Shown piece by piece: positions 1-48,021 of a stretch of DNA of 48,021 bases (its first letter is position 1; the number at the start of each line of letters is the position of its first letter). The stretch is from Escherichia phage vB_Eco_CWW26. The position numbers were made by a program, and so were the translations under genes. The stretch lies in sequence record PQ900155.1. The stretch is one strand, 5' to 3'. The notes under the pieces were generated by a model that was given only the letters and a program-made list of their open reading frames with translations, was not told the DNA's origin and did not search any database.

Positions 1-300
1 TACTCGTCAACACCTCATTTTACCCCGAAATACCCGAGCTATCGGGGTGGTGAATTTACATTCACAATCATAGGTTTACGCGCATAACCGAAAACCCCGT
101 ACATTCTTCCCTTCTTCCTTCTTATAAACCTTATAAACTATACATTATGTATTATACTACATTTATACTATATATTATATACTTTCTATTACTACTAATT
201 ACTATTTTATAAGGGTATAAGGGTAATAAGTAGTATAGTACTGAAAGGTAAAGAGTTTTTGATACCCCGATGAAGTACCCCGAACGACTTTCAACGGGGT
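1..300. repeat. 300-bp direct repeat, copy A (hairpins, TACCCCGA iterons, ~130-bp AT-rich core)
   Basis: By eye, 1-300 matches 14844-15143; 47945-48021 matches 1-77 (genome wrap). Hairpin CCCCGA-N13-TCGGGG at 23-47; TACCCCGA at 21, 263, 276; AT-rich 111-240. Confidence 0.9.
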
Positions 301-365
301 ATGTGGCAATGACGGTACAGTCATGGTAAAATCGTGGCATTAGAGACAATGACGTGGGGACCATC

Positions 366-824
366 ATGGCAAGGGCTAAACTTAACGAACATGGTGTGAC
401 AGAGCAGCAAGAGAAGTTTGCTCAGGCATTTGTGGAAACGGGTAACGCATCCGAGTCATATCGCCGCTCGTATAACACTTCCCGCATGGCCGTAAACACC
501 ATCGCTAAACGTGCATCTGAAATGCTGGATAACGGGGCAGTTGCGGGGAGAATTGCCTCACTTCGTCAAGTTCATTCAAAGCGCCACAACGTGACAGTTG
601 ATTCACTCGTTGCGGAACTGGAAGAAATTAAAAACGTTGCGCTGTCCGCCGAGACGCCGCAATCATCCGCAGCTGTGGCAGCAGTGCTCGGTAAAGCGAA
701 ACTGATGGGACTGGATAAGCAACTGGTTCAGTTGTCCGGCGGTCTGGATAATGTGAATACAAATATCAACATTACCGCCGAAGATGTGAAAGTATTTAAA
801 AAGGCGTTTAACGATGAATTTTAA
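366..824 (+). CDS. terS: terminase small subunit (putative)
   Basis: ORF 354..824; ATG at 366 preceded by GGGGA. Small protein immediately upstream of and overlapping the terminase large subunit gene. Assignment by position and size. Confidence 0.55.
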   Translation: MARAKLNEHGVTEQQEKFAQAFVETGNASESYRRSYNTSRMAVNTIAKRASEMLDNGAVAGRIASLRQVHSKRHNVTVDSLVAELEEIKNVALSAETPQSSAAVAAVLGKAKLMGLDKQLVQLSGGLDNVNTNINITAEDVKVFKKAFNDEF

Positions 825-3688: not shown

Positions 3689-3811
3689 TTATTTCTGCTT
3701 CGTAAAGCCACCACAACCACACTTCGGACACATCGTGTAACTCACGCCTTTCTTTTCAACCCGGTCAAGATGGTGATGCTCATGCTTGCATGCTACGCAG
3801 ATGATAATCAT
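3689..3811 (-). CDS. small zinc-ribbon-like protein (40 aa)
   Basis: Hand-translated MIIICVACKHEHHHLDRVEKKGVSYTMCPKCGCGGFTKQK; start overlaps stop of upstream gene (TAATG coupling). Below the 60-aa ORF-track cutoff. Confidence 0.3.
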   Translation of the reverse strand: MIIICVACKHEHHHLDRVEKKGVSYTMCPKCGCGGFTKQK

Positions 3812-4419
3812 TAATCCTCCAGCTTCACGCCGGGAATTTTACCGGCTGCGATGGCGTCGTAGATATGTTTAGCAATGTGCTTGATTTGCTCATTATTGTT
3901 GCTAATTAACTGACTAGCTTTTCCTATCTCGGAAATAGTCTCATCACGCTTGCGCTCTGCTTCGGTGCGGAGTGGGCGGAATCCGCAAACATTACCAACA
4001 AAAAATGGCTGACTTCCGTCAGATGGTTTAAGGCATGCACCATCGCCATCATAAACAAGGACAGTTACTGGAAGCCAATCATGGTCGCCGCTTGCTAGCC
4101 ACTCACACTCGACACCAACCGGCGGAAGACCTTCTCCGTTCCATGCTGGCTTTTGAGATTCGGCTAGTGCTGCTTTGTATTGCCAATAGGTCACTATCGA
4201 CTCCTTGTGGTCGTAAGATAAAGGCATGACCCATTCACCACACCAGAAATACATAAGGCTATTCCCTGTGTGATGTTTCCATGATAATCCATCATAGTGG
4301 GGATCATTCGTGTCCCATACACACAGGGAACCGTCATTATCTTGAGTAATTGACAGCGCACCCTCCGGCCAACCGCCACGCTTTGGTAATTCCTGACACA
4401 ATAGTTCAAGTAATGTCAT
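3811..4419 (-). CDS. hypothetical protein (202 aa)
   Basis: ORF track; second gene of a leftward cassette driven by the promoter at 4646-4674; 4-bp overlap with upstream gene. Confidence 0.5.
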   Translation of the reverse strand: MTLLELLCQELPKRGGWPEGALSITQDNDGSLCVWDTNDPHYDGLSWKHHTGNSLMYFWCGEWVMPLSYDHKESIVTYWQYKAALAESQKPAWNGEGLPPVGVECEWLASGDHDWLPVTVLVYDGDGACLKPSDGSQPFFVGNVCGFRPLRTEAERKRDETISEIGKASQLISNNNEQIKHIAKHIYDAIAAGKIPGVKLED

Positions 4420-4610
4420 TTTGTCTCTCCTGTTGCTTTAAGATAGTGTCGTGCTTTGTCAGTGAGTTGAAAGTTGCCCATCCCGAAGCGAGTTGGTTCT
4501 ATGTAACCTTTGTCCAATAAATCTTCCACTGTCTGAGGTATCACCCGCCAGAAACGTGTATTTTTGAAACTTTTAAGCATGCTAATTTCACGCTTCGTTA
4601 AACTGTCCAT
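4416..4610 (-). CDS. hypothetical protein (64 aa)
   Basis: ORF track; GGGAGGAG SD 5 nt upstream of ATG at 4610; first gene after the leftward promoter. Confidence 0.5.
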   Translation of the reverse strand: MDSLTKREISMLKSFKNTRFWRVIPQTVEDLLDKGYIEPTRFGMGNFQLTDKARHYLKATGETK

Positions 4611-4645: not shown

Positions 4646-4674
4646 ACTCTACTCCATACTGACGAGGCCGTCAA
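4646..4674 (-). promoter_or_regulatory. sigma70-like promoter, palindromic -35 (leftward)
   Basis: Minus strand reads TTGACG-gcctcgtcagtatggag-TAGAGT (17-bp spacer); palindrome CTGACGAGGCCGTCAA at 4659-4674; about 40 bp upstream of ATG 4610. Confidence 0.55.
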
Positions 4675-4676
4675 GC

Positions 4677-5462
4677 ATGTCACGACAAACAGAGCTAAAT
4701 TATTATCGCCAGCTGAAACAGGTTGCACAGCTTGTTCGTGAGGATGTGGACGCCAACATCGTCCCGCTGGTGAAACAGCTTGCGCCGGAGTACACGGCTG
4801 ACGGCTGGAGTGACACTATCACCTCGGCGATTAACCAGTTGCTCACACGGTGGCTTGGTGCGTTTGCTCGTCGTCAGGCTGAGACTATTGCGTCACAGTT
4901 TGTACAGACTGCGGCAAAGGATAACGCCCGCTCATTCGCTATCAATCTGTACGGCGGCGATACACAGCTACAGGAATATCTCAGCGCCGCATCGTATCAG
5001 AACGCTAAACTCATTCAGTCCATTCCGGCTCAGTATCTGGAGCAGGTGCAGAACATCGTCATGACCAACATGCGTAACGGTATGCGCCCCAGTTACATCG
5101 AGGAAGCACTTGTTAAACAATTTGGTATCACGGAGCGTCGTGCCAAACTTATCGCCCGGGACCAGACCAGTAAAATACAGGGCGATATGAACCGCATTCG
5201 CCAGACGAACAGCGGTATTGAGTATTTCAAATGGGTGACGTCACAGGATGAGCGGGTACGTCATAGCCACGTGGAGGTCGCCAAACGCGATGTGGGATTC
5301 GGTGAAGGTGTATTCCGCTGGGATGATTTGCCGGTTGTCGATGGTGTACCAACATTTCCGGGTCAGCCAATAAATTGCCGTTGTGTGGCGAGGCCAGTCA
5401 CAGCGGCACAGGTGGAGCGGAATAAAAGGGCCGGTAAAACCGACCCAAGTGTTAAGCGATGA
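4677..5462 (+). CDS. head morphogenesis protein (Mu gpF / SPP1 gp7-like)
   Basis: C-terminal motif RVRHSH...DG...P...NCRC typical of this family; ATG at 4677 (ORF track begins at GTG 4632, which would overlap the leftward promoter). Confidence 0.65.
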   Translation: MSRQTELNYYRQLKQVAQLVREDVDANIVPLVKQLAPEYTADGWSDTITSAINQLLTRWLGAFARRQAETIASQFVQTAAKDNARSFAINLYGGDTQLQEYLSAASYQNAKLIQSIPAQYLEQVQNIVMTNMRNGMRPSYIEEALVKQFGITERRAKLIARDQTSKIQGDMNRIRQTNSGIEYFKWVTSQDERVRHSHVEVAKRDVGFGEGVFRWDDLPVVDGVPTFPGQPINCRCVARPVTAAQVERNKRAGKTDPSVKR

Positions 5463-5742
5463 TACCGTCGACCACTTTGTACCATTGCTCTTTAATATTA
5501 TCCAGTCGTGCTATATGTCTGGTAATTTGAGTTTCAAGATGAGCATGTGCACCCAGTAAACTACCAAATAACACCCATTTATCTTTGTGCATGTGAATGT
5601 GGACACCTGCGTTTTTACCAGTTCTGACGAAATCATATGAATTTTTATAGCTTCTATTCACATATCCTACAATGATTTCCGCTTGTGATATCTCATCGAT
5701 ATTTATTGGTAACGCAAATCTTATCTCTATCTCTTGCGTCAT
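5452..5742 (-). CDS. hypothetical protein (96 aa)
   Basis: ORF track; last gene of a leftward cassette; His-rich segment GVHIHMH...GAHAHLE. Confidence 0.4.
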   Translation of the reverse strand: MTQEIEIRFALPINIDEISQAEIIVGYVNRSYKNSYDFVRTGKNAGVHIHMHKDKWVLFGSLLGAHAHLETQITRHIARLDNIKEQWYKVVDGIIA

Positions 5743-5852
5743 TATTTACCCTTCCACGTTTCAATTAAACTTTCAATACCCAGGAACAGTAAGTAGCCAA
5801 ATACCAACGTTCCGAACCAGTGGTCAGCAATGAAGTTGAGTACGTCAATCAT
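5742..5852 (-). CDS. small membrane protein (36 aa, putative)
   Basis: MIDVLNFIADHWFGTLVFGYLLFLGIESLIETWKGK; one hydrophobic helix; ATGA overlap with upstream gene. Confidence 0.3.
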   Translation of the reverse strand: MIDVLNFIADHWFGTLVFGYLLFLGIESLIETWKGK

Positions 5853-6037
5853 TTCCCACGTCCTCTGAACACTCGATTCAACACTTCCCACAGTCCGGAA
5901 ATTACAGCAACCGGACCAAATGCGACAATTGTCCATGCCTGCCACTTATATTCCAGTTCCAGAGGCACCGTGGCGATTGTTACTATAATTACCCACCCTG
6001 CAAGCAGGATAATCAGTACACCTTTGGTAATATCCAT
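5849..6037 (-). CDS. small membrane protein (62 aa, two predicted TM helices)
   Basis: ORF track; two hydrophobic stretches (LIILLAGWVIIVTIATV and IVAFGPVAVISGLW). Confidence 0.45.
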   Translation of the reverse strand: MDITKGVLIILLAGWVIIVTIATVPLELEYKWQAWTIVAFGPVAVISGLWEVLNRVFRGRGK

Positions 6038-6234
6038 TAGCCCAACACCTTATTAACAAGTTGGTCCATCGCGGTCCATCGCTTAGATGCCGAACCATCC
6101 TCTTTAGTCGCGGTGAATGTCACAATATCCTCGAGGAAGTTCATTTTAAAGTTTGTCACAGTGATAACACCGTCTGCATCAATAATCCGGTCATTGTTGC
6201 GGAGCATTACCGCTTTAATTGGTTTATAGTTCAT
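6037..6234 (-). CDS. hypothetical protein (65 aa)
   Basis: ORF track; translationally coupled within the leftward cassette. Confidence 0.4.
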   Translation of the reverse strand: MNYKPIKAVMLRNNDRIIDADGVITVTNFKMNFLEDIVTFTATKEDGSASKRWTAMDQLVNKVLG

Positions 6235-6380
6235 TTTCCATACGCCTCACGTAATGCAGCATTAGCGAGCGCCCAATCATCATGCTTGCGCGCAAGCTGC
6301 TGTGCGGTCTGTAACAGTTCTTTATCAATGACCCGCGCCTCTGATACGGGGCGGTCGTAGCCAGGAAGTAATGTGTTCAT
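6231..6380 (-). CDS. hypothetical protein (49 aa)
   Basis: Hand-translated MNTLLPGYDRPVSEARVIDKELLQTAQQLARKHDDWALANAALREAYGK; GAGAGGG SD; stop overlaps next ATG; about 45 bp downstream of the promoter. Confidence 0.35.
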   Translation of the reverse strand: MNTLLPGYDRPVSEARVIDKELLQTAQQLARKHDDWALANAALREAYGK

Positions 6381-6411
6381 CTCTCAAACCCTCTCTGTTG
6401 TTGATGAATTA

Positions 6412-6441
6412 AGTATACGTCATCCCTGACGAACTCGTCAA
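6412..6441 (-). promoter_or_regulatory. sigma70-like promoter, palindromic -35 (leftward)
   Basis: Minus strand TTGACG-N18-TATACT; palindrome CTGACGAACTCGTCAA at 6426-6441. Confidence 0.5.
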
Positions 6442-6447
6442 CTTAAA

Positions 6448-6633
6448 TCACTCCTGCGGCGGCTCGGGTAATGGTTGCCAGTGTGTGGGAGTAAATAAAG
6501 CGCCATAAACTCGCCAGTTACCGCTTAATCCTTCGCTATAGAAACCAGTCTTCATTCCGCAATACTTCTTTGTCACCAGTACATCAACGCCTTCTTCTGG
6601 TAATTTATCACTACACTTAATCCAGTCTGCCAT
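6448..6633 (-). CDS. DUF551-like phage protein
   Basis: C-terminal THWQPLPEPP matches the DUF551 signature as I recall it; upstream KCSDKLPEEG. Confidence 0.5.
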   Translation of the reverse strand: MADWIKCSDKLPEEGVDVLVTKKYCGMKTGFYSEGLSGNWRVYGALFTPTHWQPLPEPPQE

Positions 6634-6814
6634 ACAATGTCCCCACTCGTTTCAAATCGCGCTGTGCGTGACAGCTGTAATTACCATCGTCCCATTTGAC
6701 CCAGTATTGCGGCGGGTCATTTGCGACAACATTTTTAACTGTGCCGGTAACGACACCATCGGGGAATAACTTCACAAGTGTCCCGGTTGGGTAGCGTGGG
6801 ATGGTGCTGGTCAT
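6617..6814 (-). CDS. hypothetical protein (65 aa)
   Basis: ORF track; overlaps neighbours within the leftward cassette. Confidence 0.4.
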   Translation of the reverse strand: MTSTIPRYPTGTLVKLFPDGVVTGTVKNVVANDPPQYWVKWDDGNYSCHAQRDLKRVGTLYGRLD

Positions 6815-7104
6815 TCCAGTTCCTCATCTTTTTGATTAATGTACACTGGTTCACCAAACCATACGGGTGTGACATATCCCTTGATTTCATCAGCAATGCG
6901 ACTGGCGCACGATAGCGCCCCTGATTGTGAATGTATGCGACCGTTGGCATATTCAGTTTGATAGGCGTGAGGCTGCTCACCCTCATACAACGGTTTCAGT
7001 TTATACCCAAACATGACAGCGTTGTTATGCGCCACACTGCCCGCGCGGACCAGATATGTCGTACCGCGATTGGTTGTCACTTCATATGCGTATGGTGTGT
7101 TCAT
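6811..7104 (-). CDS. hypothetical protein (97 aa)
   Basis: ORF track; 4-bp overlap with upstream gene. Confidence 0.4.
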   Translation of the reverse strand: MNTPYAYEVTTNRGTTYLVRAGSVAHNNAVMFGYKLKPLYEGEQPHAYQTEYANGRIHSQSGALSCASRIADEIKGYVTPVWFGEPVYINQKDEELE

Positions 7105-7658
7105 TTGTCACCCTCCGACAGTTCATTAATTAGACGCTCAAGATACCAGCGGGCCTTTTTCACATCTTCCAGGCCGTTCTTCTCTTCATAGCGCCACAGG
7201 TATTTAACAACGTTTGCCACACATACTGCCTCGATACCGGTCTTACCCACCGTGGCAGCGGTGATAGCGTCGATACACTCGATACCGCCTTGTGTGTAGT
7301 GTGACGGGTGGTTGACCATGTCGACATCAATGAGTGGAGTTTGAATGCAACCGAATTGTACAGTACCATCTGGGTGATGAATTGAACGCGGACGATTATC
7401 ATTGGTTGCTACAGGTTCGCGTTGGGCGATGATTTCTATGTTATAGGTAGCGTTAACGTCTCCTTCACCAAGCGTATTACAATCATCAAGACTTGACTCA
7501 CTGGGCCACCAAATTCTGTCCCCCACACTTTGCAAACCGTTACGGTTTTCCTCATATCCGATGTCGCCAGTTCCCAACTCTCTTATCACCTGCTTACACC
7601 AATCCGGCGCACATTCGAAGTCTTTCTCGTCACCTTTAATGTAGTTCCACGTGGTCAT
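7101..7658 (-). CDS. DUF3310-domain protein
   Basis: HPSHYTQGGIECIDAI...VVKYLWRYEEKNGLEDVKKARWYLERL resembles DUF3310; ATG at 7658 with GAGGAGA SD. The ORF-track N-terminus (to 7757) would overlap the promoter. Confidence 0.5.
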   Translation of the reverse strand: MTTWNYIKGDEKDFECAPDWCKQVIRELGTGDIGYEENRNGLQSVGDRIWWPSESSLDDCNTLGEGDVNATYNIEIIAQREPVATNDNRPRSIHHPDGTVQFGCIQTPLIDVDMVNHPSHYTQGGIECIDAITAATVGKTGIEAVCVANVVKYLWRYEEKNGLEDVKKARWYLERLINELSEGDK

Positions 7659-10462: not shown

Positions 10463-12043
10463 ATGTTTATAGAAAAAGCAAAAGAAATACATAAAGGAAA
10501 ATATGACTATTCCAAAGTGGAATATGTAAACAACAAAACACCTGTGACGATAGTTTGCCCGGTGCATGGCGATTTCGTTCAACTACCACAGGGACACCTG
10601 AAATGCGAAATAGCGTGCCCAAAATGCAGAATCGACGACGTTTATGACCGAATGATACAACAGGCGCGAGCGATTCATGGTGACAAGTACTCATACGTCC
10701 GGGAATCGTTCATTTCCGTAGTCAAGAAAATGTCCATAGTGTGTCCGGTACACGGGGTGTATTACATGACACTGAATAACCACGTTCACGGGGGTGCGGA
10801 GTGTAAACCCTGCGCACTGGCAAAGCGTGGTGAGTTACACCGAAAGACACTTGATAGTTTTGTAGAAGACGCGAAAAAAGTTCATGGTGACAGGTACGAT
10901 TATTCCAAAGTTGTTTACGAGGGTAACAAAAAGAAAATAACCATCACTTGTGCAAAACATGGTGACTTTAAACAGGAACCATCTTCACATCTTTCAGGAA
11001 GAGGTTGTCCAAAATGCGGCCTTGAGTCAAGAGTAAGCAAAAGCATGAGTACTCTTGAAAGATTCATTCGCAAAAGCAGAGTCATACATGGTGATAAATA
11101 CGATTATTCCAAAGCGGTGTATAAAGGTAGTGACCAAAAATTAACCATAATTTGTCCGGTACATGGTGAATTTTCCCAATACGCAAACAACCACTCTACT
11201 CTTGGCCATCAATGCCCGACGTGTTCTAAAGCTGGTGTGTCCCGGGGTGAATTTGAAGTCTTCAACTTCGTCCGTTCCATCTGTCCCGATGCGGTACAAT
11301 CTGACCGTACAGTCATTGGACCGCTGGAACTTGATGTTGTAGTGCCGTCGCGCAATCTGGCAATTGAATTTAACGGCCTGTACTGGCACGATGAACGCAC
11401 GAAAAACAAGAAGTATCACATCACCAAGCGTCACCGCGTGGAAGCCGCAGGATACCGTCTGATAAGTATCCGTGAGGATGTCTGGAATGAGCGCCGCGAA
11501 CAGGTGGAAAGTATCATTCGCAACGCACTCGGCGTGACATCCGACAAAGTGTTTGCCCGCAAATGTAATATCGTGGAAGTTTCGACGTCTGAAGCGAAGG
11601 TATTTATGGAGAAACACCACGTGCAGGGTTTCCGGGGTGCGACCGTACATTATGGTCTGCAACACGATGATACATTAGTCGCCGTAATCAGTCTGACAAA
11701 CTGGCAGAAAAAGAATGAGTGGGAACTGGTACGATATGCAACCGCGTGTAATGTTCCGGGTGGACTGTCCCGCCTGTGGAAACATGCTACCACGGTTAAC
11801 AACATTGTCCGTGCCTATTCATACGTTGACCGGGATTTGTTCAGTGGTTCCGGTTATATTAATGCCGGTTTCACACTTTCAACCACGACAGTGGGGTTCA
11901 GGATTGTAAATGGTTGCACAACCGAATCGCGTGAGAAGTGGAACCGCGCACCAGATGAAATGACACAGACGCAATGGTACGAATCAGAAGGTGTATCACG
12001 CATCTACGATTCTGGACAGGACAAGCTGTTATGGGTAGAATGA
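10463..12043 (+). CDS. free-standing homing-endonuclease-like protein (4 zinc-ribbon repeats + Vsr/PD-(D/E)xK-like C-terminal domain)
   Basis: Four repeats of HGDKYDYSKV...CP.HG.F...H..G..CPKC; C-terminal LDVVVPSRNLAIEFNGLYWHDE; AT-rich codon usage; AAGAGGAG SD; inserted between capsid terminator and next structural gene. Confidence 0.55.
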   Translation: MFIEKAKEIHKGKYDYSKVEYVNNKTPVTIVCPVHGDFVQLPQGHLKCEIACPKCRIDDVYDRMIQQARAIHGDKYSYVRESFISVVKKMSIVCPVHGVYYMTLNNHVHGGAECKPCALAKRGELHRKTLDSFVEDAKKVHGDRYDYSKVVYEGNKKKITITCAKHGDFKQEPSSHLSGRGCPKCGLESRVSKSMSTLERFIRKSRVIHGDKYDYSKAVYKGSDQKLTIICPVHGEFSQYANNHSTLGHQCPTCSKAGVSRGEFEVFNFVRSICPDAVQSDRTVIGPLELDVVVPSRNLAIEFNGLYWHDERTKNKKYHITKRHRVEAAGYRLISIREDVWNERREQVESIIRNALGVTSDKVFARKCNIVEVSTSEAKVFMEKHHVQGFRGATVHYGLQHDDTLVAVISLTNWQKKNEWELVRYATACNVPGGLSRLWKHATTVNNIVRAYSYVDRDLFSGSGYINAGFTLSTTTVGFRIVNGCTTESREKWNRAPDEMTQTQWYESEGVSRIYDSGQDKLLWVE

Positions 12044-13770: not shown

Positions 13771-13790
13771 GCCCCTCACGGGGCTTTGTA
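13770..13790 (+). terminator. hairpin terminator (weak T-tract)
   Basis: AGCCCC-TCAC-GGGGCT then TTGTAAG, between convergent genes. Confidence 0.4.
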
Positions 13791-13865
13791 AGACATGAAT
13801 GCTTTCATGAATTCCGCTGCACCTTTGTCCCATTCGTTACAATGGTTAACCATCCGTATCGTGAG

Positions 13866-14315
13866 TTAACTTCCGGTACTCCCAAAACCACCCTGACGGT
13901 TAGTTTTCTGTTGGGGAGGTTCATTGATTTCATTAAACGTCACTTGTTCGACTGGAATTAGCATCCCCTGTGCGATCCGGTCACCGTGATTAACCCAGAA
14001 CACACCTTCATGATGGTTAACATCCTGCGTCAACTTAACCATTAACTCACCAGTGTAGTCACTGTCAATGACGCCGGTACAATTTGACAGACGGACATCG
14101 CTGTTAAATCCGTGACCACTGCGTGAGTAAATCATCAAAGCATGTCCAACTGGTATATCAAATTTAAGCCCTGTAGGAATGATTACAGGCTCACCGTTGT
14201 GAATTAGCACTGGTTTATCGAGTGCAGCATAAATATCGAAGCACGCGCTTCCTGACGTTGCATACGTTGGGATACGTGCACCAGGACGTGACAGGTAAAC
14301 ATTCATTTCGCTCAT
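13866..14315 (-). CDS. dut: dUTPase (dUTP pyrophosphatase)
   Basis: Motifs PTYATSGSA, YSRSG, GVIDSDYTGEL, GDRIAQ, GGFGSTG. ATG at 14315 with GGAGAG SD gives a typical ~149 aa; the ORF track extends to 14414. Confidence 0.85.
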   Translation of the reverse strand: MSEMNVYLSRPGARIPTYATSGSACFDIYAALDKPVLIHNGEPVIIPTGLKFDIPVGHALMIYSRSGHGFNSDVRLSNCTGVIDSDYTGELMVKLTQDVNHHEGVFWVNHGDRIAQGMLIPVEQVTFNEINEPPQQKTNRQGGFGSTGS

Positions 14316-14394
14316 TTCTTCAACTCTCCAGCCATATTGTGCGCGGTTAAGCGCGATAAATTTATCTTTCGTTGTAAATAAAACTGTTCCGGAC

Positions 14395-14793
14395 TTATGC
14401 ATTACTACCCACATATTTAATCACCATGTATCCTGGTCTGGCGGAAAGTGAGACCTTGTGTCCATATATCCACGCGGTTTTATATACGTATGTCAACTGT
14501 GCGGTGCGCAATTTAATGTCAGAATATGTAGCTTTCGTTCTCCATTCCCATGTAAATTTATCGCCTGGTTTTGCTCTTTCAAGGGCGTCAAGAAGGATGA
14601 TGCGCTCATACGACCTTACTCCACGTGATACGCGTCTCCGGGTTTTGGGCTTCCCTCGTGCCAGACTTCGACCATCTGGTTTTCCACTTTTTGTGATTCG
14701 TATCAGTCTCTGTGATGGCTGTGCGACATCTCGAGGGACACTCTCTTCTGGAACAGAATTTATTTTTTTTAAAATATAAGATGCAAATGACAC
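14395..14793 (-). CDS. hypothetical basic protein
   Basis: GTG at 14793 with AGGAG SD; the ORF-track start at 14856 lies inside the promoter and repeat, so a shorter product is preferred. Confidence 0.4.
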   Translation of the reverse strand: MSFASYILKKINSVPEESVPRDVAQPSQRLIRITKSGKPDGRSLARGKPKTRRRVSRGVRSYERIILLDALERAKPGDKFTWEWRTKATYSDIKLRTAQLTYVYKTAWIYGHKVSLSARPGYMVIKYVGSNA

Positions 14794-14824
14794 TGTGTTA
14801 CTCCTCTCTGTAATTTGTAAAACG

Positions 14825-14853
14825 AGTATATCAATGATTGACGTACTCGTCAA
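14825..14853 (-). promoter_or_regulatory. sigma70-like promoter, palindromic -35 (leftward)
   Basis: Minus strand TTGACG-agtacgtcaatcattga-TATACT (17-bp spacer); palindrome TTGACGTACTCGTCAA 14838-14853 straddles the repeat boundary. Confidence 0.6.
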
Positions 14854-15143
14854 CACCTCATTTTACCCCGAAATACCCGAGCTATCGGGGTGGTGAATTT
14901 ACATTCACAATCATAGGTTTACGCGCATAACCGAAAACCCCGTACATTCTTCCCTTCTTCCTTCTTATAAACCTTATAAACTATACATTATGTATTATAC
15001 TACATTTATACTATATATTATATACTTTCTATTACTACTAATTACTATTTTATAAGGGTATAAGGGTAATAAGTAGTATAGTACTGAAAGGTAAAGAGTT
15101 TTTGATACCCCGATGAAGTACCCCGAACGACTTTCAACGGGGT
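14844..15143. repeat. 300-bp direct repeat, copy B
   Basis: Matches 1-300 by eye; flanks diverge immediately outside. Confidence 0.9.
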
Positions 15144-15198
15144 GTGTGGATACTGACGCAATGCTGTGTGATAATGTCTTGACAAACGAGGGCACACT

Positions 15199-15702
15199 AT
15201 GTCAGTCAACATTACAGAATTGCAAAAGGCTAAAGGCATCATACGCGACAGGCTCGGGAGATTTGTTAAAGCCAGTAATCGTGTGATCACTGTTGGGATA
15301 CATGAGGACGCGGGTGAACATCCTGACTCCAGTATGACAAATGCCCAGCTTGGTGCATTGCTGAATTACGGTAACCCGAATAACAAATTGTACGGTAATC
15401 CTGCACCTATTCCGCCGCGCCCCTGGCTGATACCCGGTGTGGAAAGTGGTAAACAGGACATCATCGACACCATCGCTCACGGTGTAGCCAATGATTTACC
15501 GCTTGACCAGGTTCTGGAACAAGTGGGCGAGTTTGCAGCTGGTGCCGTTCAGCAATACATGACCGATTTACAGCAACCCCCAAACAGTCCCTACACTATT
15601 GCTCAGAAGGGTTCCAGTAATCCACTTATCGATACTGGTGCTTTACGTGCAAGCGTGACGTATAAGGTCAGCAACGAAAAACCTGATGAGGGTATCTTAT
15701 GA
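15199..15702 (+). CDS. head-tail joining / virion morphogenesis protein (HK97 gp10-like, putative)
   Basis: C-terminal IDTGALRASVTYKV motif; first rightward gene after repeat copy B. Confidence 0.4.
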   Translation: MSVNITELQKAKGIIRDRLGRFVKASNRVITVGIHEDAGEHPDSSMTNAQLGALLNYGNPNNKLYGNPAPIPPRPWLIPGVESGKQDIIDTIAHGVANDLPLDQVLEQVGEFAAGAVQQYMTDLQQPPNSPYTIAQKGSSNPLIDTGALRASVTYKVSNEKPDEGIL

Positions 15703-18196: not shown

Positions 18197-18532
18197 TTAT
18201 TTCTGGTTGAGCATGGCGGTGCGGTAGGATTCATCCTCACCAAATATAGCCGCCTCCAGTACATCAATGGCTTGCGATGGTGAGTGTGAATATTTATCGA
18301 AGGTCGGACCTTTGATGAACTGTGCGATTTTGAACAGTCGTTTTTCTTGCGCGTGATACAAATCACTTAGTTTCTTATATCTCTCATCGGACTCACTATC
18401 CATCGTCGCCAGGAGCATTTTATACACCTGAAGATTGTATTCACCGTTCATCGATAGCTGACCTTGCTCATCTTTTATTTTGTACAGTCGGTCGATTTGT
18501 GTAATCAGGTTTTCTTTTGTCACTCTTCTCAT
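18197..18532 (-). CDS. hypothetical protein (111 aa)
   Basis: ORF track; second gene of a leftward two-gene cassette in the tail module. Confidence 0.45.
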   Translation of the reverse strand: MRRVTKENLITQIDRLYKIKDEQGQLSMNGEYNLQVYKMLLATMDSESDERYKKLSDLYHAQEKRLFKIAQFIKGPTFDKYSHSPSQAIDVLEAAIFGEDESYRTAMLNQK

Positions 18533-18777
18533 TTTCTTTTACTCCGAATGTGAAAGTCTGCTTTATCCATCATATCTTTACGCCAGCAAACGCCGGTACC
18601 CATATACGCCGGGTCGTCACTTTCCGCATAACCAAATTCATTTTCATGATACGTGCAAATCGTGTCGGTCTGTCCGTCATAAATCTGGAACTGATCACCT
18701 TGTGCAGCGTGGGCACCGCTGCAGTAAATTGTCGCAGCCATGATGACTGCTAACTGAATTTTAAATTTGTGAATCAT
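18529..18777 (-). CDS. small secreted protein with signal peptide
   Basis: MIHKFKIQLAVIMAATIYCSGAHA then mature part with 3 Cys; ATG at 18777 with AGGAGA SD. The ORF-track TTG at 18837 is the promoter -35. Confidence 0.5.
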   Translation of the reverse strand: MIHKFKIQLAVIMAATIYCSGAHAAQGDQFQIYDGQTDTICTYHENEFGYAESDDPAYMGTGVCWRKDMMDKADFHIRSKRK

Positions 18778-22519: not shown

Positions 22520-23166
22520 GTTTAATTAACCTTCTGGTAAAGCGCGGTCCACAGCTTGGGTCGCTTCAGTTCGATGCCGTCCTGTCTGATGACCTTGATG
22601 CCAGCGTGGATATCGTGCAGTACCCCATTGAGACAGGTACGCCAATTGCAGACCACATTATCTATCAGCCTATTCGTTACACGATGACAGGTGCAGTATC
22701 GAACAACCCGTTGAAAGTTAGTATCACCGATTTCACCGGGGCATTGACAAATCTTGTCGATGACAATCCGTTCATTGCAGCGGGTGCCGGTCTGTTCGCG
22801 GGGTGGTTGAGCGGCTCAAATGAAACTCGCTCCAGTACGACACTGAATACTTTGCTCGATTTCATGTACTCCGGTCAGGTATTCACAGTGGATACGGGCG
22901 AAATTACGCTGAACAATATGGTCATTCAGCGTATTGGGCGCTCTAAAGACCCGGAGAATGAGAACGGATTGATATTTGTTGCTGAACTACAGCAGATTGT
23001 CACGCTTGACCGCGTGGCGAACGGTTCACAACCGGCACAATATCAGCTGAACAGTAACGACGTTTCCAGCACGTCCATATCAGGACTGATTGAGCGTGGT
23101 TATATCAATGTGAAGACAGCTGCAACGAATGTTGCCGACCAGGTTACGACACTTTTGGATTTGTAA
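22516..23166 (+). CDS. hypothetical tail / baseplate hub protein
   Basis: ORF track; last gene before the non-coding island. Confidence 0.4.
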   Translation: MSLINLLVKRGPQLGSLQFDAVLSDDLDASVDIVQYPIETGTPIADHIIYQPIRYTMTGAVSNNPLKVSITDFTGALTNLVDDNPFIAAGAGLFAGWLSGSNETRSSTTLNTLLDFMYSGQVFTVDTGEITLNNMVIQRIGRSKDPENENGLIFVAELQQIVTLDRVANGSQPAQYQLNSNDVSSTSISGLIERGYINVKTAATNVADQVTTLLDL

Positions 23167-23193
23167 AAAAAAAAAAGCCCCGTACTCCGGGGC
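23165..23193 (-). terminator. rho-independent terminator for leftward transcription
   Basis: Hairpin GCCCCG-TACTC-CGGGGC (23177-23193) preceded on + strand by A12, so on the minus strand it is followed by U12. Confidence 0.6.
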
Positions 23194-23677
23194 AAACATA
23201 CTGAAGCGCAATGGAGAGAGAGTATGGTTTACAGTTGTGGCGGCCGGTGCTGATCTCCGGCTTGTATATGGACTACCCGTCGTCGCCATGGTGAGCCATT
23301 ACCTCACCATCTAGCTGATAAGTTAGCGCATCAGCCCGCGCATTCACCACAACTCTAAACCATCGTCGCAACTGTTGTTATGTTTCACAACATTACCCCA
23401 GTCACTTACGGCTTACCCGTCAGCAAGATTGGACCACCTCCTCGGGGGTTACAACAGGAAAGAGCATTCAGTTGTACCTGCCAGTTGTGCCACTAGGAAA
23501 CGCTTTCGCAGACCGTTAAGCTCTTTGCAAGTTCTTTAATGCTCTTACCTGTTGTATTGGTCGAACCGCCACGGTGACCAACCGCATTCGTGCATGCCTG
23601 GCTACACATTCCGGCTACCCGCTGGTGCGAAGGAATAGGACACCCCGGACCGCTAAGACACATGTGCTATATGCCTG
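23194..23677 (-). ncRNA. putative leftward non-coding transcript (~480 nt)
   Basis: Region has no ORF of 60 aa or more; bracketed by a leftward promoter (23685-23713) and terminator; several hairpins. Class not recognised. Confidence 0.25.
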
Positions 23678-38622: not shown

Positions 38623-38654
38623 CTCTCTGTCCTCCATTGTTGTCGATGTGGTGA

Positions 38655-38683
38655 ACTCTATATCACCATGACGCAACCGTCAA
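38655..38683 (-). promoter_or_regulatory. sigma70-like promoter, palindromic -35 (leftward)
   Basis: Minus strand TTGACG-gttgcgtcatggtgata-TAGAGT; + strand palindrome ATGACGCAACCGTCAA 38668-38683. Confidence 0.5.
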
Positions 38684-38697
38684 CACTAATTTTAAAT

Positions 38698-42050: not shown

Positions 42051-42329
42051 ATGAGCAAAGAGCATATTTTAGAAGTAGCTTACACGATGGCACAGCGCGA
42101 CGGCTTTGGTACTCTTACCCGCGATGGTGTCGCTGCCGAGGCTGGTGTGGCGATGGGAAGCGTTAACCATCACTGGGGTAAGATGTCCGCACTTCGTGAA
42201 GCAGTGATGCAACGGGCGGTAGAAGAAGAAAACCTCGAATTGATTGGGCAGGGGATGGCGCTGGGTGATAGCGTTGCCAAATCCGCCCCACTGGAGCTAC
42301 GCACACGCGCGTTGACAACCCTGCTTTAA
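42051..42329 (+). CDS. small HTH protein (TetR-type N-terminal HTH, no ligand domain)
   Basis: SKEHILEVAYTMAQRDGFGTLTRDGVAAEAGVAMGSVNHHWGKMSALREAV fits the TetR HTH pattern; ATG at 42051 (ORF-track frame 42012). Confidence 0.45.
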   Translation: MSKEHILEVAYTMAQRDGFGTLTRDGVAAEAGVAMGSVNHHWGKMSALREAVMQRAVEEENLELIGQGMALGDSVAKSAPLELRTRALTTLL

Positions 42330-42353: not shown

Positions 42354-44711
42354 ATGACACATGTGAATCCCCCGGTGCAGGGGGCCGATTCCCTGCACTT
42401 TATCGTCTGCAAAACAGTATCTTCACAGAAGAAGCCCGGGCGCACGGAGAAGATGCCATGTAATGCCGCTGGTGATGTAGTCAGTCTGCACGTTGCGGAC
42501 CGTATGACTCATGCTCAGGCGGTTGCGGCGGCTTCTGCACTGGGTGAGTCATATCGCCCCGCAGTCATTCTCACGGGTGACGGTCGTTTCTGCGTGGATA
42601 TCGACGGTGCACTACAGGATGATAACACCTGGTCACCGCTCGCGCTGGAGTTGTGCACCACTTTTGCCGGTTGTTACGTGGAAGTGAGTAACAGCGGTAA
42701 AGGCTTGCACATTTTTGGTTACAGTCCGTCCATCCCTGAGCATAGCTGTAAAAATATTTCGCTGCACATCGAACTGTACACGTCTGACCGTTTTATCTGT
42801 CTGGGAAGTGGTGCACGGGGTGACATGATGTTTAACGCGTCTGTACCACTCAACGCCACGGTTGCACGTTATTTCCCACAGACCGAGCAAGTTACGGCGA
42901 CGGAATGGACCACAACTCACGTCGAAGGCTCATGTCCGATTGAGGACGATGCGAAACTCATCGAAAAAGCCTGTTCGAGTAAAGGTGGTGTCGCGGCTGT
43001 TTTCGGTGGCAAAGCAACATTCAAAGACCTGTGGACGCGTAATGTTGAGGTACTGAGTGATGCGTATCCAGATGAGGACCGCGAGTATGACGGGTCGAGC
43101 GCCGATGCCGCACTGGCCCAACATTTATCGTTCTGGACCGGTGGTAACTGTGAACGTATCGAACGCCTGATGTGTCTGTCTGCGCTGGCACGTCCTAAAT
43201 GGGACAGTCACAAATCGTACATGCGACGTACCATTCTGGGTGCTTGCGCGCGTCAGACAACTTATTACAGTGTCGGCGCACCGATTGAACTGGTGACCCC
43301 TGCTCAGGTCATTGAGACGGGTGCACCAGTTATCCGCAGTGGGTATCAATTTATTGGTGGCTCGCAGCTTGTTGACCACTTCAAAGGTTGTGTATATGTG
43401 GCAGACAGTCACCGTATTCTCACCCCCAACGGTCAGATGCTGAAGTCTGAGCAGTTTAACGCGATGTACGGTGGCTATGTGTTTGCGCTGGATGATGGTA
43501 ATGAGAAGACCACTAAAAAGGCTTTCGAAGCGTTCACCGAGAACCAGTGTATCATGTTTCCGAAAGTTGACCGCTCAACGTTCCGTCCGGACCTGCCGCA
43601 GGGTGCTATCATCGAAGAAGATGGTCTGCGTCATGTCAACGCATACGTACCGGTGACAGTAGCAAGCGTCCCGGGCGATGTGACACCTTTCCTTACTCAT
43701 CTGGCCAAACTGTTACCCGTCGAGCGTGACCGCGACATCCTGCTGTCCTACATGGCAGCATGCGTACAGTACAAAGGGACCAAGTTCAAATGGGCACCAT
43801 TGTTGCAGGGCGTCGAGGGTAACGGTAAAACACTGTTCACACTGTGCGTAATGGAAGCGGTTGGTTCACGCTACAGCCACATGCCGCCAGCGCAGGAAAT
43901 CGGTGAGAAGTTCAACGCCTGGCTGTTCGATAAAATATTTATCGGCGTGGAAGATATTTACGTTCCGGAGCAGAAACTTGAACTGATTGAAACACTCAAG
44001 CCAATGATTACCGGTGAGTACCTCGCTAAGCGTGCGATGCAGCAGGACCAGGTAATGCACCGCCTGTGTGCTAACTTCATGTTTAACAGTAACCACAAGA
44101 ACGCCGTGCGCAAGACCGCTAATGACCGCCGGTTCGCTATTTTCTACACCGCGCAGCAGGAGCATATGGACATTGTGCGCGATGGCATGGGTGGCGACTA
44201 CTTCCCCAACCTGTACGACTGGCTCAAACGTGGCGGTGGATTTGCAGCCGTAACGCATTATCTGGAGAACTACGCCATTCCCGCACAACTTAACCCGGCG
44301 ACACATTGTCAGCGTGCCCCGGAAACAAGTAGCACCCATGAGGCTGTGACAGCATCGCTCGGTAGTGTCGAGCAGGAAATCATGGAAGCAATCGACGAGG
44401 GTCGCCAGGGCTTTGCGGGCGGTTGGGTGAGTAGTAAGGCACTGGATAATCTGTTACGCCAGATGCGCGCTGACCGCGCTGTACCGGTAGGTAAACGTCG
44501 TGACATGATGCGTCAACTGGGTTACGACTGGCACCCGGCGCTTAAAGACGGACGTGTGAACAATGTGATAATGATTGACGGTGGTAAGCCGCGGTTGTAC
44601 ATCAAGATTGGACACATTCACGCTAACCTCACAAATGCGGCGGACGTGGCGCGCCATTACGCAGCGGCACAGGGTGATACAAGTGCGTTAGCCTTTGCAG
44701 AAACTAAATAA
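42354..44711 (+). CDS. primase-polymerase (AEP) fused to SF3/D5-like helicase
   Basis: AEP motifs CVDIDG and SNSGKGLHIFG in N-terminal half; Walker A GVEGNGKT in C-terminal half. Confidence 0.65.
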   Translation: MTHVNPPVQGADSLHFIVCKTVSSQKKPGRTEKMPCNAAGDVVSLHVADRMTHAQAVAAASALGESYRPAVILTGDGRFCVDIDGALQDDNTWSPLALELCTTFAGCYVEVSNSGKGLHIFGYSPSIPEHSCKNISLHIELYTSDRFICLGSGARGDMMFNASVPLNATVARYFPQTEQVTATEWTTTHVEGSCPIEDDAKLIEKACSSKGGVAAVFGGKATFKDLWTRNVEVLSDAYPDEDREYDGSSADAALAQHLSFWTGGNCERIERLMCLSALARPKWDSHKSYMRRTILGACARQTTYYSVGAPIELVTPAQVIETGAPVIRSGYQFIGGSQLVDHFKGCVYVADSHRILTPNGQMLKSEQFNAMYGGYVFALDDGNEKTTKKAFEAFTENQCIMFPKVDRSTFRPDLPQGAIIEEDGLRHVNAYVPVTVASVPGDVTPFLTHLAKLLPVERDRDILLSYMAACVQYKGTKFKWAPLLQGVEGNGKTLFTLCVMEAVGSRYSHMPPAQEIGEKFNAWLFDKIFIGVEDIYVPEQKLELIETLKPMITGEYLAKRAMQQDQVMHRLCANFMFNSNHKNAVRKTANDRRFAIFYTAQQEHMDIVRDGMGGDYFPNLYDWLKRGGGFAAVTHYLENYAIPAQLNPATHCQRAPETSSTHEAVTASLGSVEQEIMEAIDEGRQGFAGGWVSSKALDNLLRQMRADRAVPVGKRRDMMRQLGYDWHPALKDGRVNNVIMIDGGKPRLYIKIGHIHANLTNAADVARHYAAAQGDTSALAFAETK

Positions 44712-44735
44712 GCCCTTCGGGGCTTTTTTTTTTTT
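44711..44735 (+). terminator. rho-independent terminator after primase-helicase
   Basis: AGCCC-TTCG-GGGCT followed by T12. Confidence 0.75.
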
Positions 44736-44745
44736 GCAATTAGTG

Positions 44746-44774
44746 TTGACGAGTTCGTCAATGGGGAGTATAGT
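44746..44774 (+). promoter_or_regulatory. sigma70-like promoter, palindromic -35 (rightward)
   Basis: TTGACG-agttcgtcaatggggag-TATAGT (17-bp spacer); palindrome TTGACGAGTTCGTCAA 44746-44761; about 30 bp upstream of ATG 44805. Confidence 0.65.
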
Positions 44775-44804
44775 TAGTTCATCGACAACAGAGAGGTGAT
44801 GAAG

Positions 44805-47320: not shown

Positions 47321-47899
47321 TTATCTTCCACAGTTGCGGCATTCACCATTTGCCACATAACGTTCCGCAATAATATTACAATGCTTGCAAGGCTCATACG
47401 GAATATACCAGCGTTTGCCGTCAGCGATGGCCTGCTGGCGCGGTGATTTAATTTTAATGACTCCAACGTGAATTCCCGATTCACTCAGTAACAGGGCGTT
47501 TTTCATCGTCTCCAACTGTTCATTTAAAACAGAAATATTATGCTCAATCATGGCGATGTTTTCACGCAGTGCATCGACCTCACCAGCGGTGTCAACAATG
47601 GCTGCTTTTGGTTTTTTCCATTCCCCCGTCATGCGTTGTTCGGTTAAGCAGAAGACACATTTACCAGCAGTGTTACGGACGCCCGGATGTCCACATTCAC
47701 TGTTCGGTTTCTTCTGTACTCTCCACGAGCGACCATCATTAAGACCGTCGAGAACTTTTTGATAGAGTTCGTTGCGTGCAGGAAGACCCATGTTTTTCGC
47801 TTTCACAAAATCATGATGGTCATGAAGTGCACAAATACTACACAATTCTGTTTCTTTAAATTTTGTAGTGCCGTGACAATTATCTATAAGATGAATCAT
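47321..47899 (-). CDS. Cys-rich zinc-finger protein (192 aa)
   Basis: Three CxxC-type clusters (C-x8-C-x2-C; C-x11-C-x2-C; C-x2-C-x12-C-x2-C) and a central coiled-coil-like region; first gene downstream of the repeat-associated leftward promoter. Confidence 0.45.
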   Translation of the reverse strand: MIHLIDNCHGTTKFKETELCSICALHDHHDFVKAKNMGLPARNELYQKVLDGLNDGRSWRVQKKPNSECGHPGVRNTAGKCVFCLTEQRMTGEWKKPKAAIVDTAGEVDALRENIAMIEHNISVLNEQLETMKNALLLSESGIHVGVIKIKSPRQQAIADGKRWYIPYEPCKHCNIIAERYVANGECRNCGR

Positions 47900-47924: not shown

Positions 47925-47954
47925 ACTATAAAATAATAGAGAATTACTCGTCAA
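47925..47954 (-). promoter_or_regulatory. sigma70-like promoter, half-palindrome -35 at repeat boundary (leftward)
   Basis: Minus strand TTGACG-N18-TATAGT; -35 is the first 10 nt of repeat copy C; the second half-site is absent here. Confidence 0.45.
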
Positions 47955-48021
47955 CACCTCATTTTACCCCGAAATACCCGAGCTATCGGGGTGGTGAATT
48001 TACATTCACAATCATAGGTTT
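47945..48021. repeat. start of 300-bp repeat (wrap-around copy of 1-77)
   Basis: 47945-48021 matches 1-77 by eye; implies a 47,944-bp circular or permuted unit. Confidence 0.9.

Follow-up and report, generated by a model that had tools for sequence, protein, structure and literature searches.

A paired 300-bp non-coding element upstream of the head and tail operons of Jedunavirus phages: a candidate control region for late transcription

A 300-bp non-coding sequence is present twice in the genome of Escherichia phage ZCEC13 (ON086804 / NC_071140, genus Jedunavirus). Our preferred reading, in which we place about even confidence, is that this element is a composite cis-regulatory region for late promoters, heading the operons of virion genes, with a left edge that also belongs to an early leftward promoter. 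This reading is favoured because the position, orientation and copy number of the element track the starts of the late operons, and because of a conserved extended -10. The original prediction had called the sequence origin-like or a regulatory hub. The layout it described is real and is conserved across several genera, and the same features, from operon-start position to extended -10, support the hub half better.

Jedunavirus phages are often isolated as candidate therapeutic phages against Klebsiella. No other non-coding signal in their genomes is as clear as the element, which also occurs in phages of Pectobacterium, Pantoea, Edwardsiella and Shewanella. It supplies concrete targets, namely two sites, two box types and one conserved neighbour gene. 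In the searchable literature on Jedunavirus and related phages, neither a description of the repeat nor transcript data or mapped transcription starts were found. In what follows, the window is the whole stretch of DNA analysed, that is, the 48021 bp of the ZCEC13 record, which is marked circular.

The two copies and their neighbourhood

Comparison of the window with itself bore out the predicted repeat, as positions 1-300 and 14844-15143 are 100% identical. The left border is sharp (47944 is t, 14843 is g), and the right border consists of a single mismatch at 301/15144, after which five further bases are identical. The perfect identity of the ZCEC13 copies is possibly due in part to the collapse of repeats in short-read assembly; within other genomes the two copies are 90-100% identical. 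The copies and the genes that follow them are given below.

1..300, plus strand: copy A, an exact repeat upstream of terS at the start of the packaging/head late operon; a homologous copy lies in the same place in Jedunavirus, PEAT2, AAM22, MSW-3 and SppYZU01.
14844..15143, plus strand: copy B, an exact repeat upstream of the neck/tail-completion gene at the start of the tail late operon; found in the same place in PEAT2, AAM22 and MSW-3.
366..824, plus strand: terS, the first gene 3' of copy A (annotation; Pfam Terminase_2).
15199..15702, plus strand: the neck/tail-completion gene, the first gene 3' of copy B (annotation; tblastn family).
47945..48021, plus strand: overlap of the record's ends, not a third copy; identical to 1-77 in a record marked circular.

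As had been proposed, both copies occupy divergent intergenic regions. By annotation, the leftward genes beside copies A and B end at 47899 and 14853, and on the other side of each copy a rightward late gene begins just past the right edge. For the leftward gene at 14395-14853, the annotated start overlaps its own promoter, and a GTG near 14787, after GAGGAG, is the more likely start.

The exact match of bases 47945-48021 to 1-77 might suggest a further copy of the element. This was rejected; it is copy A seen twice, across the ends of a circular assembly. An overlap of 77 bases is what a circular contig assembled from short reads with k=77 typically shows, and the real genome of ZCEC13 is therefore about 47,944 bp long. 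A terminal repeat or cos end was likewise rejected, since two copies are internal, the 77-base overlap is an assembly artefact and the relative IME346 has no fixed termini.

Several small open reading frames are annotated within the repeat (39-104, 202-324, 14882-14947 and 14995-15195, all on the minus strand, besides the gene at 14395-14853). They run on beyond the repeat into unrelated flanks, and no conserved reading frame was found for them, as the alignment of relatives contains gaps of 1, 6, 12 and 19 columns inside the element. These frames are probably spurious, because indels break them in relatives.

The 300-bp direct repeat is also a built-in recombination site that flanks the whole head module, which is relevant to phage engineering and to the understanding of module exchange. 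Because of this repeat, short-read assemblies of these phages break or start here, and many metagenome contigs end inside it. The perfect identity and sharp edges in ZCEC13 could thus be inflated by repeat collapse, and one may ask whether the duplication is neutral or an artefact, its similarity kept by recombination alone and with no function of its own. We regard this as very improbable. Independently sequenced genomes of five genera carry diverged but paired copies at the same sites. In AAM22 the degree of conservation of this non-coding sequence is close to that of the genes around it, and a direct repeat around essential head genes carries a cost in deletions.

Anatomy of the element

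Read in the direction of the late genes, the element of ZCEC13 is made of the following parts.

21..49, no strand: left box pair, TACCCCGA at 21-28 (plus) and CACCCCGA at 42-49 (minus), originally described as the first hairpin; the boxes are conserved and the pairing is not; in copy B 14864-14892.
66..78, plus strand: IHF-like site AATCATAGGTTTA, part of the invariant TTCACAATCA..TTACG block; in most relatives it reads AATCAGCAGCTTA, which is a perfect WATCARNNNNTTR; in copy B 14909-14921.
93..100, plus strand: box AACCCCGT within the invariant GCATAACCGAAAACCCCGTACATT; GAAAACCCCGTA is found in MSW-3 as well; in copy B 14936-14943.
103..138, plus strand: pyrimidine tract, followed by CTTATAAAC twice (121-138); the tract occurs in all genera, and the CTTATAAAC pair is missing from a second variant class.
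112..211, no strand: AT-rich core with a GC content of 17%; this core and its twin in copy B (14955-15054) are the two 100-bp windows of lowest stability in the genome.
196..245, plus strand: purine-rich block TAATTACTATTTTATAAGGGTATAAGGGTAATAAGTAGTATAGTACTG, which contains two AAGGGTA boxes; no other part is as well conserved across genera, and as a search pattern it recovered the family.
263..301, no strand: right box cluster, TACCCCGA at 263-270 and 276-283 (plus) and TACCCCGT at 294-301 (minus), originally described as the second hairpin or dyad; in copy B 15106-15144.

The boxes are strongly concentrated here. ACCCCG occurs six times per copy, and the whole window holds 47 matches against 21 expected. 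When ACCCC/GGGGT boxes are counted together, the ZCEC13 element has 6 per 300 bp, the mean being 0.54 (sd 0.8). The element copies are the two densest windows for these boxes in ZCEC13, PEAT2, AAM22 and MSW-3, and the single copy of SppYZU01 is the densest there. The boxes stand on both sides of the AT-rich core and in both orientations, with irregular spacing. As predicted, TACCCCGA is found twice near the right end, in addition to the exact match at 21-28. Both predicted hairpins appear in DNA and RNA folds, the first as a stem of ACCCCGA at 22-28 with TCGGGGT at 42-48, and the second as ACCCCG at 277-282 with CGGGGT at 295-300.

The AT-rich tract noticed originally is the extreme of the genome. 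The core and its twin in copy B have a stability of -98.4 kcal, whereas the mean of 100-bp windows is -140.6 (sd 7.5) and the next window reaches -112. In PEAT2, AAM22, MSW-3 and SppYZU01, too, the least stable 100-bp windows are the element copies. The IHF-like site varies among relatives only at the positions that are N in the consensus, and the count of its motif in the window is at chance, which makes the evidence for it weak. Both of the short direct repeats that had been reported are present, CTTATAAAC twice and TATAAGGG twice (208-223); the TATAAGGG pair is kept among relatives and CTTATAAAC is absent from a variant class. Long-range pairing of the two CTTATAAAC with the two TATAAGGG is possible in ZCEC13 by inspection, and was set aside as the left partner is not conserved.

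This anatomy leads to the most serious alternative, that the element is a replication origin, either on its own or with the late promoters coupled to it. In this reading the AT-rich core would melt and the TACCCCG boxes would serve as iterons for an origin-binding protein, either the neighbouring zinc-ribbon protein or the prim-pol/helicase encoded at 42354-44711, after which the prim-pol/helicase would start DNA synthesis on the strands laid bare. Box clusters around the least stable DNA are indeed a textbook origin layout as well, which counts against the late-promoter reading, and 300 bp far exceeds what a simple activator site needs. In the five genomes the densest box clusters, in both orientations and on both sides, coincide with the least stable windows, and the conservation pattern of the IHF-like site is suggestive. 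However, the spacing of the boxes is irregular, no DnaA box lies inside the element, and the genome-wide count of DnaA boxes is not above chance. GC skew merely tracks gene orientation, its cumulative minimum lying at about 37-38 kb, at the divergent junction of the replication genes. An origin, moreover, would not have to stand strictly 5' of late operons, in a fixed orientation and followed by a conserved -10. We consider an origin possible and rather unlikely, and return to it below.

Iteron origins, such as lambda ori, those of iteron plasmids, and P4 ori plus crr, resemble the element in having clustered short repeats in both orientations beside the DNA that melts most easily, an IHF-like site and an adjacent gene transcribed away from it. 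The satellite phage P4, with its pair of ori and crr, has two separated cis elements and offers a possible parallel for the two copies. The element is unlike these origins in its irregular box spacing, its lack of DnaA boxes and its locked position 5' of late operons with a conserved -10; further, one Edwardsiella copy has no AT-rich part.

Conservation and exchange between the copies

Alignments revealed a grammar that is common to the genera. In the direction of the late genes, it begins with at least one (T)ACCCCG box, the invariant TTCACAATCA-N5-TTACG and GAAAACCCCGTA. A pyrimidine tract comes next, followed by a variable centre, which is usually extremely AT-rich and falls into at least two unrelated sequence classes, one of them without CTTATAAAC. 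Then comes a purine-rich, nearly C-free block with at least two AAGGGTA boxes. Direct and inverted ACCCC/GGGGT boxes follow; after another 21-35 bp there is an extended -10 resembling GTGTGGTAnnAT, before the RBS and the start codon. Between ZCEC13 and AAM22, the element aligns at 71.6% over 141 bp. Coding DNA of the two phages aligns at only 65-75%, which argues that this non-coding block is under selection.

The TACCCCG boxes are among the features kept by relatives, and the hairpins are not. The hairpin at 23-47, which had been taken for a characteristic part of the element, is broken in 16 of the 25 aligned copies, and another at 50-65 is specific to ZCEC13. In four candidate helices across these 25 copies, no covariation was found; the score was 0.049 against 0.044 in shuffles, and 56 of 500 shuffles scored as high. 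Conserved structure was thus dropped for the 23-47 and 50-65 hairpins. A structured RNA had been raised as a possibility at the outset; the Rfam scan gave no match at the gathering score and only chance-level matches at E<1, and scans for tRNA and tmRNA gave nothing. Sites for a protein fit better than an RNA structure, because the boxes are kept as sequence and not as pairing.

The right-hand dyad deserves separate consideration, as it raises the idea of a leader that acts at the level of RNA. Transcription would start in or upstream of the AAGGGTA block, and a TACCCCG..CGGGGTA stem-loop would be present in both late 5' leaders, where it could act in antitermination, processing or stability. 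The dyad occurs in all genera, and its variable loop (12 to >20 nt) suits a stem-loop better than a site for a fixed dimer. One copy has a compensatory change, ACCCTG/CAGGGT, the only such change seen. In copy B of the Edwardsiella phages the stem-loop abuts the RBS and hence must be transcribed there, and in a Vibrio relative the order is promoter, small hairpin and RBS. Late transcripts of these phages must also pass antisense gene cassettes and terminators. The evidence against an RNA leader is the negative outcome of the Rfam and covariation analyses given above, together with the promoter itself: the promoter scan found no sigma70-like promoter inside the element, hexamers in the purine block that could serve as a -10 are not conserved, and the conserved -10 lies downstream of the stem-loop in most genomes. 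Taken together, we hold this to be improbable, and more so than an origin.

The paired leader RNAs putL and putR of phage HK022 provide a comparison. They too are two near-identical non-coding copies that open two long operons which must cross terminators. The element is unlike them in that no promoter was found upstream of its stem-loop, covariation is absent and the -10 is mostly downstream.

The two copies within a genome exchange sequence. The A copies and the B copies do not fall into clades of their own; in comparisons across genomes, A copies are on average 82.4% identical to A copies, B to B 76.7% and A to B 79.3%. The other copy of the same genome ranks between first and fourth out of 24, private alleles are shared by both partners in two genomes, and in the distant genera the members of a pair are closer to each other than to their counterparts elsewhere. 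It is on this absence of separate clades, the shared private alleles and the likeness of within-genome pairs that the exchange is concluded. The non-separation of A and B and the high rank of the partner suggest, therefore, that both copies serve one shared specificity.

Distribution and copy number among relatives

About 70 Jedunavirus records contain the element, and almost all of them have it in two places. Whole-genome checks showed the same pair at the same two sites in PEAT2 (Pectobacterium), AAM22 (Pantoea) and MSW-3 (Edwardsiella), and a further contig of Edwardsiella type and contigs resembling AAM22 have the pair as well. The copies of AAM22 are 75% identical over 247 bp and those of MSW-3 94% over 108 nt. 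In the two-copy genomes and in two metagenome contigs, the element always directly precedes terS and the neck gene, in the same orientation as these genes.

Two relatives show how the copies follow the organisation of the virion genes. In the Shewanella phage SppYZU01, these genes form one unbroken block, and a single copy of the element, with the same grammar, lies at the head of that block. What this phage has in common with ZCEC13 is only the early/replication module and the neighbouring zinc-ribbon gene; no homologue of ZCEC13 TerS or TerL was detectable in it. The contig L022 has structural genes of the ZCEC13 type, in which head and neck genes abut, and at this junction no element copy, AT-rich window or box cluster was found. 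Thus, the copies correspond in number and place to the points where late transcription units start. ZCEC13 also has other rightward blocks, and these are without the element.

For an origin, these data point in both directions. In SppYZU01 the element goes with the replication module and not with the structural module, which speaks for an origin. Against this, copy B is missing where head and neck genes abut, and the centre of copy B in the Edwardsiella phages is GC-rich, so that the AT-rich unwinding region is weak in copy B of MSW-3.

The constant place of copy A directly 5' of terS in all genomes brings up another explanation, in which the element is a pac region bound by the small terminase and copy B is a second or decoy site. 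Phage SPP1 is the precedent, with its pac at the promoter region of terS. TerS stays with the element while the large terminase is swapped. The lack of fixed genome termini in the relative IME346 (PMC9007800) fits headful packaging. On the other hand, copy B lies at the neck gene, far from the terminase genes, and SppYZU01 keeps the element without a detectable homologue of ZCEC13 TerS or TerL. The TerS variants are 64-100% alike, which is too similar for a comparison of co-variation. A pac region is, on balance, quite unlikely.

As for the terminase itself, the large terminase gene at 814-2262 has no detectable counterpart in PEAT2, AAM22 and MSW-3, which have terS, the portal gene and the upstream element in common with ZCEC13. 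Related contigs carry Terminase_6C or Terminase_3. It appears that terL was swapped as a single gene, because the contigs differ in terminase family while terS, portal and element stay.

Promoter-like sites at both edges

Promoter-like sites were located at both edges of each copy.

5..10, minus strand: -35 TTGACG of the leftward early-type promoter of copy A (promoter scan).
14825..14853, minus strand: leftward sigma70-like promoter at copy B, which reads TTGACG-17-TATACT and has a TG; one half of the palindrome TTGACGTACTCGTCAA (14838-14853) forms its -35.
303..332, plus strand: rightward site of copy A that resembles a promoter, GTGGCA-18-TAAAAT; a TG at 324-325 makes the -10 an extended one, and the distance from the last box is 23 bp.
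15147..15175, plus strand: rightward site of copy B that resembles a promoter, TGGATA-17-GATAAT, likewise with a TG and at a distance of 23 bp from the last box.

The leftward -35 that had been predicted at the left edge of both copies is thus confirmed as a sequence feature. In copy A the complete sigma70-like site, TTGACG-18-TATAGT, extends over 47954..47925 with 10 of 12 matches, and its -10 (47925-47930) is outside the repeat. The palindrome TTGACG-N4-CGTCAA, of which the -35 of copy B is part, is enriched in the window (16 against 3.3 expected). With 16-mers at 4659, 6426, 7718, 14838, 18822, 18845, 23698, 35836, 38668, 38725, 41993 and 44746, it is found mainly at intergenic sigma70-like promoters, including the left edge of copy B, and occurs also in PEAT2 and AAM22. 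The palindrome looks like a shared operator that overlaps the -35. A plausible binder is the 92-aa protein encoded at 42051-42329, which consists of a TetR-type DNA-binding domain (TetR_N) alone.

On the rightward side, both ZCEC13 copies have a site that scores as a promoter, in which the -10 is extended and the -35 is poor. An extended -10 resembling GTGTGGTAnnAT is present in both copies of AAM22, in L052, in copy A of the Edwardsiella phage and in SppYZU01 (where it reads GTGTGGTATTAT), and in each of these no other candidate of this kind lies in the stretch from the boxes to the start codon. In all the copies examined that have an extended -10, the TACCCC..GGGGTA dyad lies 21-35 bp before its TG. 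Against the late-promoter reading, copy B of the Edwardsiella phages stands between two rightward genes and cannot act through a downstream -10, because it ends 19 bp before the start codon and no -10 follows it. A sigma54 promoter was considered by eye and rejected, the spacing being unfit in both right flanks. The GenBank record of KpV52 marks only two predicted promoters.

A possible control region for the late operons

From the anatomy, conservation, positions, copy number and sequence exchange that were observed, we infer promoter activity, an activating factor and DNA looping. In the reading that we prefer, the right end of the element would provide the upstream half of a promoter for the host RNA polymerase, with an extended -10 and no good -35. 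The direct and inverted TACCCCG boxes just upstream would be bound by a factor of the phage that activates this promoter late in infection. Another group of these boxes is found some 170-240 bp farther away on the upstream side, past the AT-rich, deformable spacer with its IHF-like site, and the two groups may cooperate, for example via a DNA loop. The left edge would provide the -35 of the early leftward promoter, which in copy B is within a palindromic operator. The ancestral unit was presumably the one between the conserved zinc-ribbon gene and terS. The second copy would have given the tail operon the same control after leftward gene cassettes split the tail from the head operon, and recombination between A and B may keep the copies alike.

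Late promoters of other phages provide the closest parallels. Those of P2/186 (Ogr/B), Mu (C) and P1 (Lpa) likewise have a -10 without a good -35, a dyad just upstream and repetition before each late operon, and a small phage-encoded, often zinc-binding activator is expected for them as for the element. They differ in the size of the conserved block, which here is about 300 bp and not about 40 bp. The second box cluster, the extreme AT-rich spacer and the restriction to only one or two copies per genome are also unlike these systems, and the TACCCCG box and the AAGGGTA pair match none of them.

Vibrio phage 1.278.O, a distant relative, has four late-promoter-like repeats of 57 nt, and this supports the late-promoter reading, since it suggests that phages of this group habitually repeat their late-promoter elements. 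These repeats stand directly before late blocks and have AATTACTAT and GTATA(G)TACTG in common with positions 196-245 of the element. They differ in being short, in having four copies without box clusters or an AT-rich core, and in belonging to a genome with a different replication module. The 57-nt repeats are at 6403, 21642, 23432 and 26627 and consist of TGCAATTACTATAAC-N13-GTATACTGTGA, a small GTGA..TCAC hairpin and TTGGA. Matching bidirectional terminators are found at the ends of the late blocks in this phage.

Candidate factors and the replication genes

Which protein might act on the boxes is suggested by the gene on the other side of copy A.

47321..47899, minus strand: 192-aa protein with two Cys/His zinc-ribbon-like motifs, divergent from copy A; it adjoins the element in ZCEC13, PEAT2, AAM22, MSW-3, SppYZU01 and two metagenome contigs.

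Its motifs are C..GH..C..C and SPRQxAIxxGxxWYxPxxPCxxC..AExxV..GxCRxC, accompanied by a long helix. It has only 26 relatives in the database, and no known family, solved relative or informative fold match was found for it. From its position, this protein is a candidate trans-acting factor of the element. Among the proteins scanned, there was no homologue of Ogr, C or Lpa.

The other candidate belongs to the origin reading. The 785-aa prim-pol/helicase at 42354-44711 has a helix-bundle domain of the NrS-1 type and an SF3 helicase domain. The polymerase of the deep-sea phage NrS-1 requires a specific template sequence, proposed as its origin, which occurs once per strand near the genome centre (PMC7102993, PMC8718748). 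Both systems thus combine a prim-pol/helicase that has this helix bundle with a short specific sequence on both strands. The NrS-1 sequence, however, is TTTGGTTA or GTG(A/G) (PMC8718748) and not TACCCCG, and has no link to late operons.

The two functions could also be combined, the element being both an origin and a gate for late transcription. The boxes for the zinc-ribbon protein or the NrS-1-like prim-pol/helicase would flank the DNA that melts most easily, the start of replication would turn on the head and tail operons, and gene conversion would keep both sites matched to one initiator. We judge this dual role unlikely, somewhat more so than an origin as such and less so than an RNA leader.

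Near the replication genes, a 43-nt inverted repeat (72%; 38654-38696 and 44733-44775) brackets the rightward early replication operon, with the TTGACG..CGTCAA promoter motif in both of its arms.

Other observations in the window

Leftward cassettes of small genes are interspersed among the rightward virion genes (3689-4610, 5452-7658, 13776-14853, 18197-18777 and 23273-23587). Their content varies between relatives, as is expected of accessory cassettes. Because the cassettes interleave with rightward virion genes, late transcripts must cross antisense regions.

A direct repeat of 87 nt (10883-10969 and 11087-11173, 74% identity) lies inside the 526-aa 'endonuclease-like' gene at 10463-12043, meaning a repeated protein module; a homologue is also found in SppYZU01. 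Finally, stem-loops with flanking A and T runs stand at module borders at 23166-23200 (AAAAAAAAAAAAGCCCCGTACTCCGGGGC) and 44711-44735 (GCCCTTCGGGGCTTTTTTTTTTTT). Both look like strong terminators, the first of them bidirectional.
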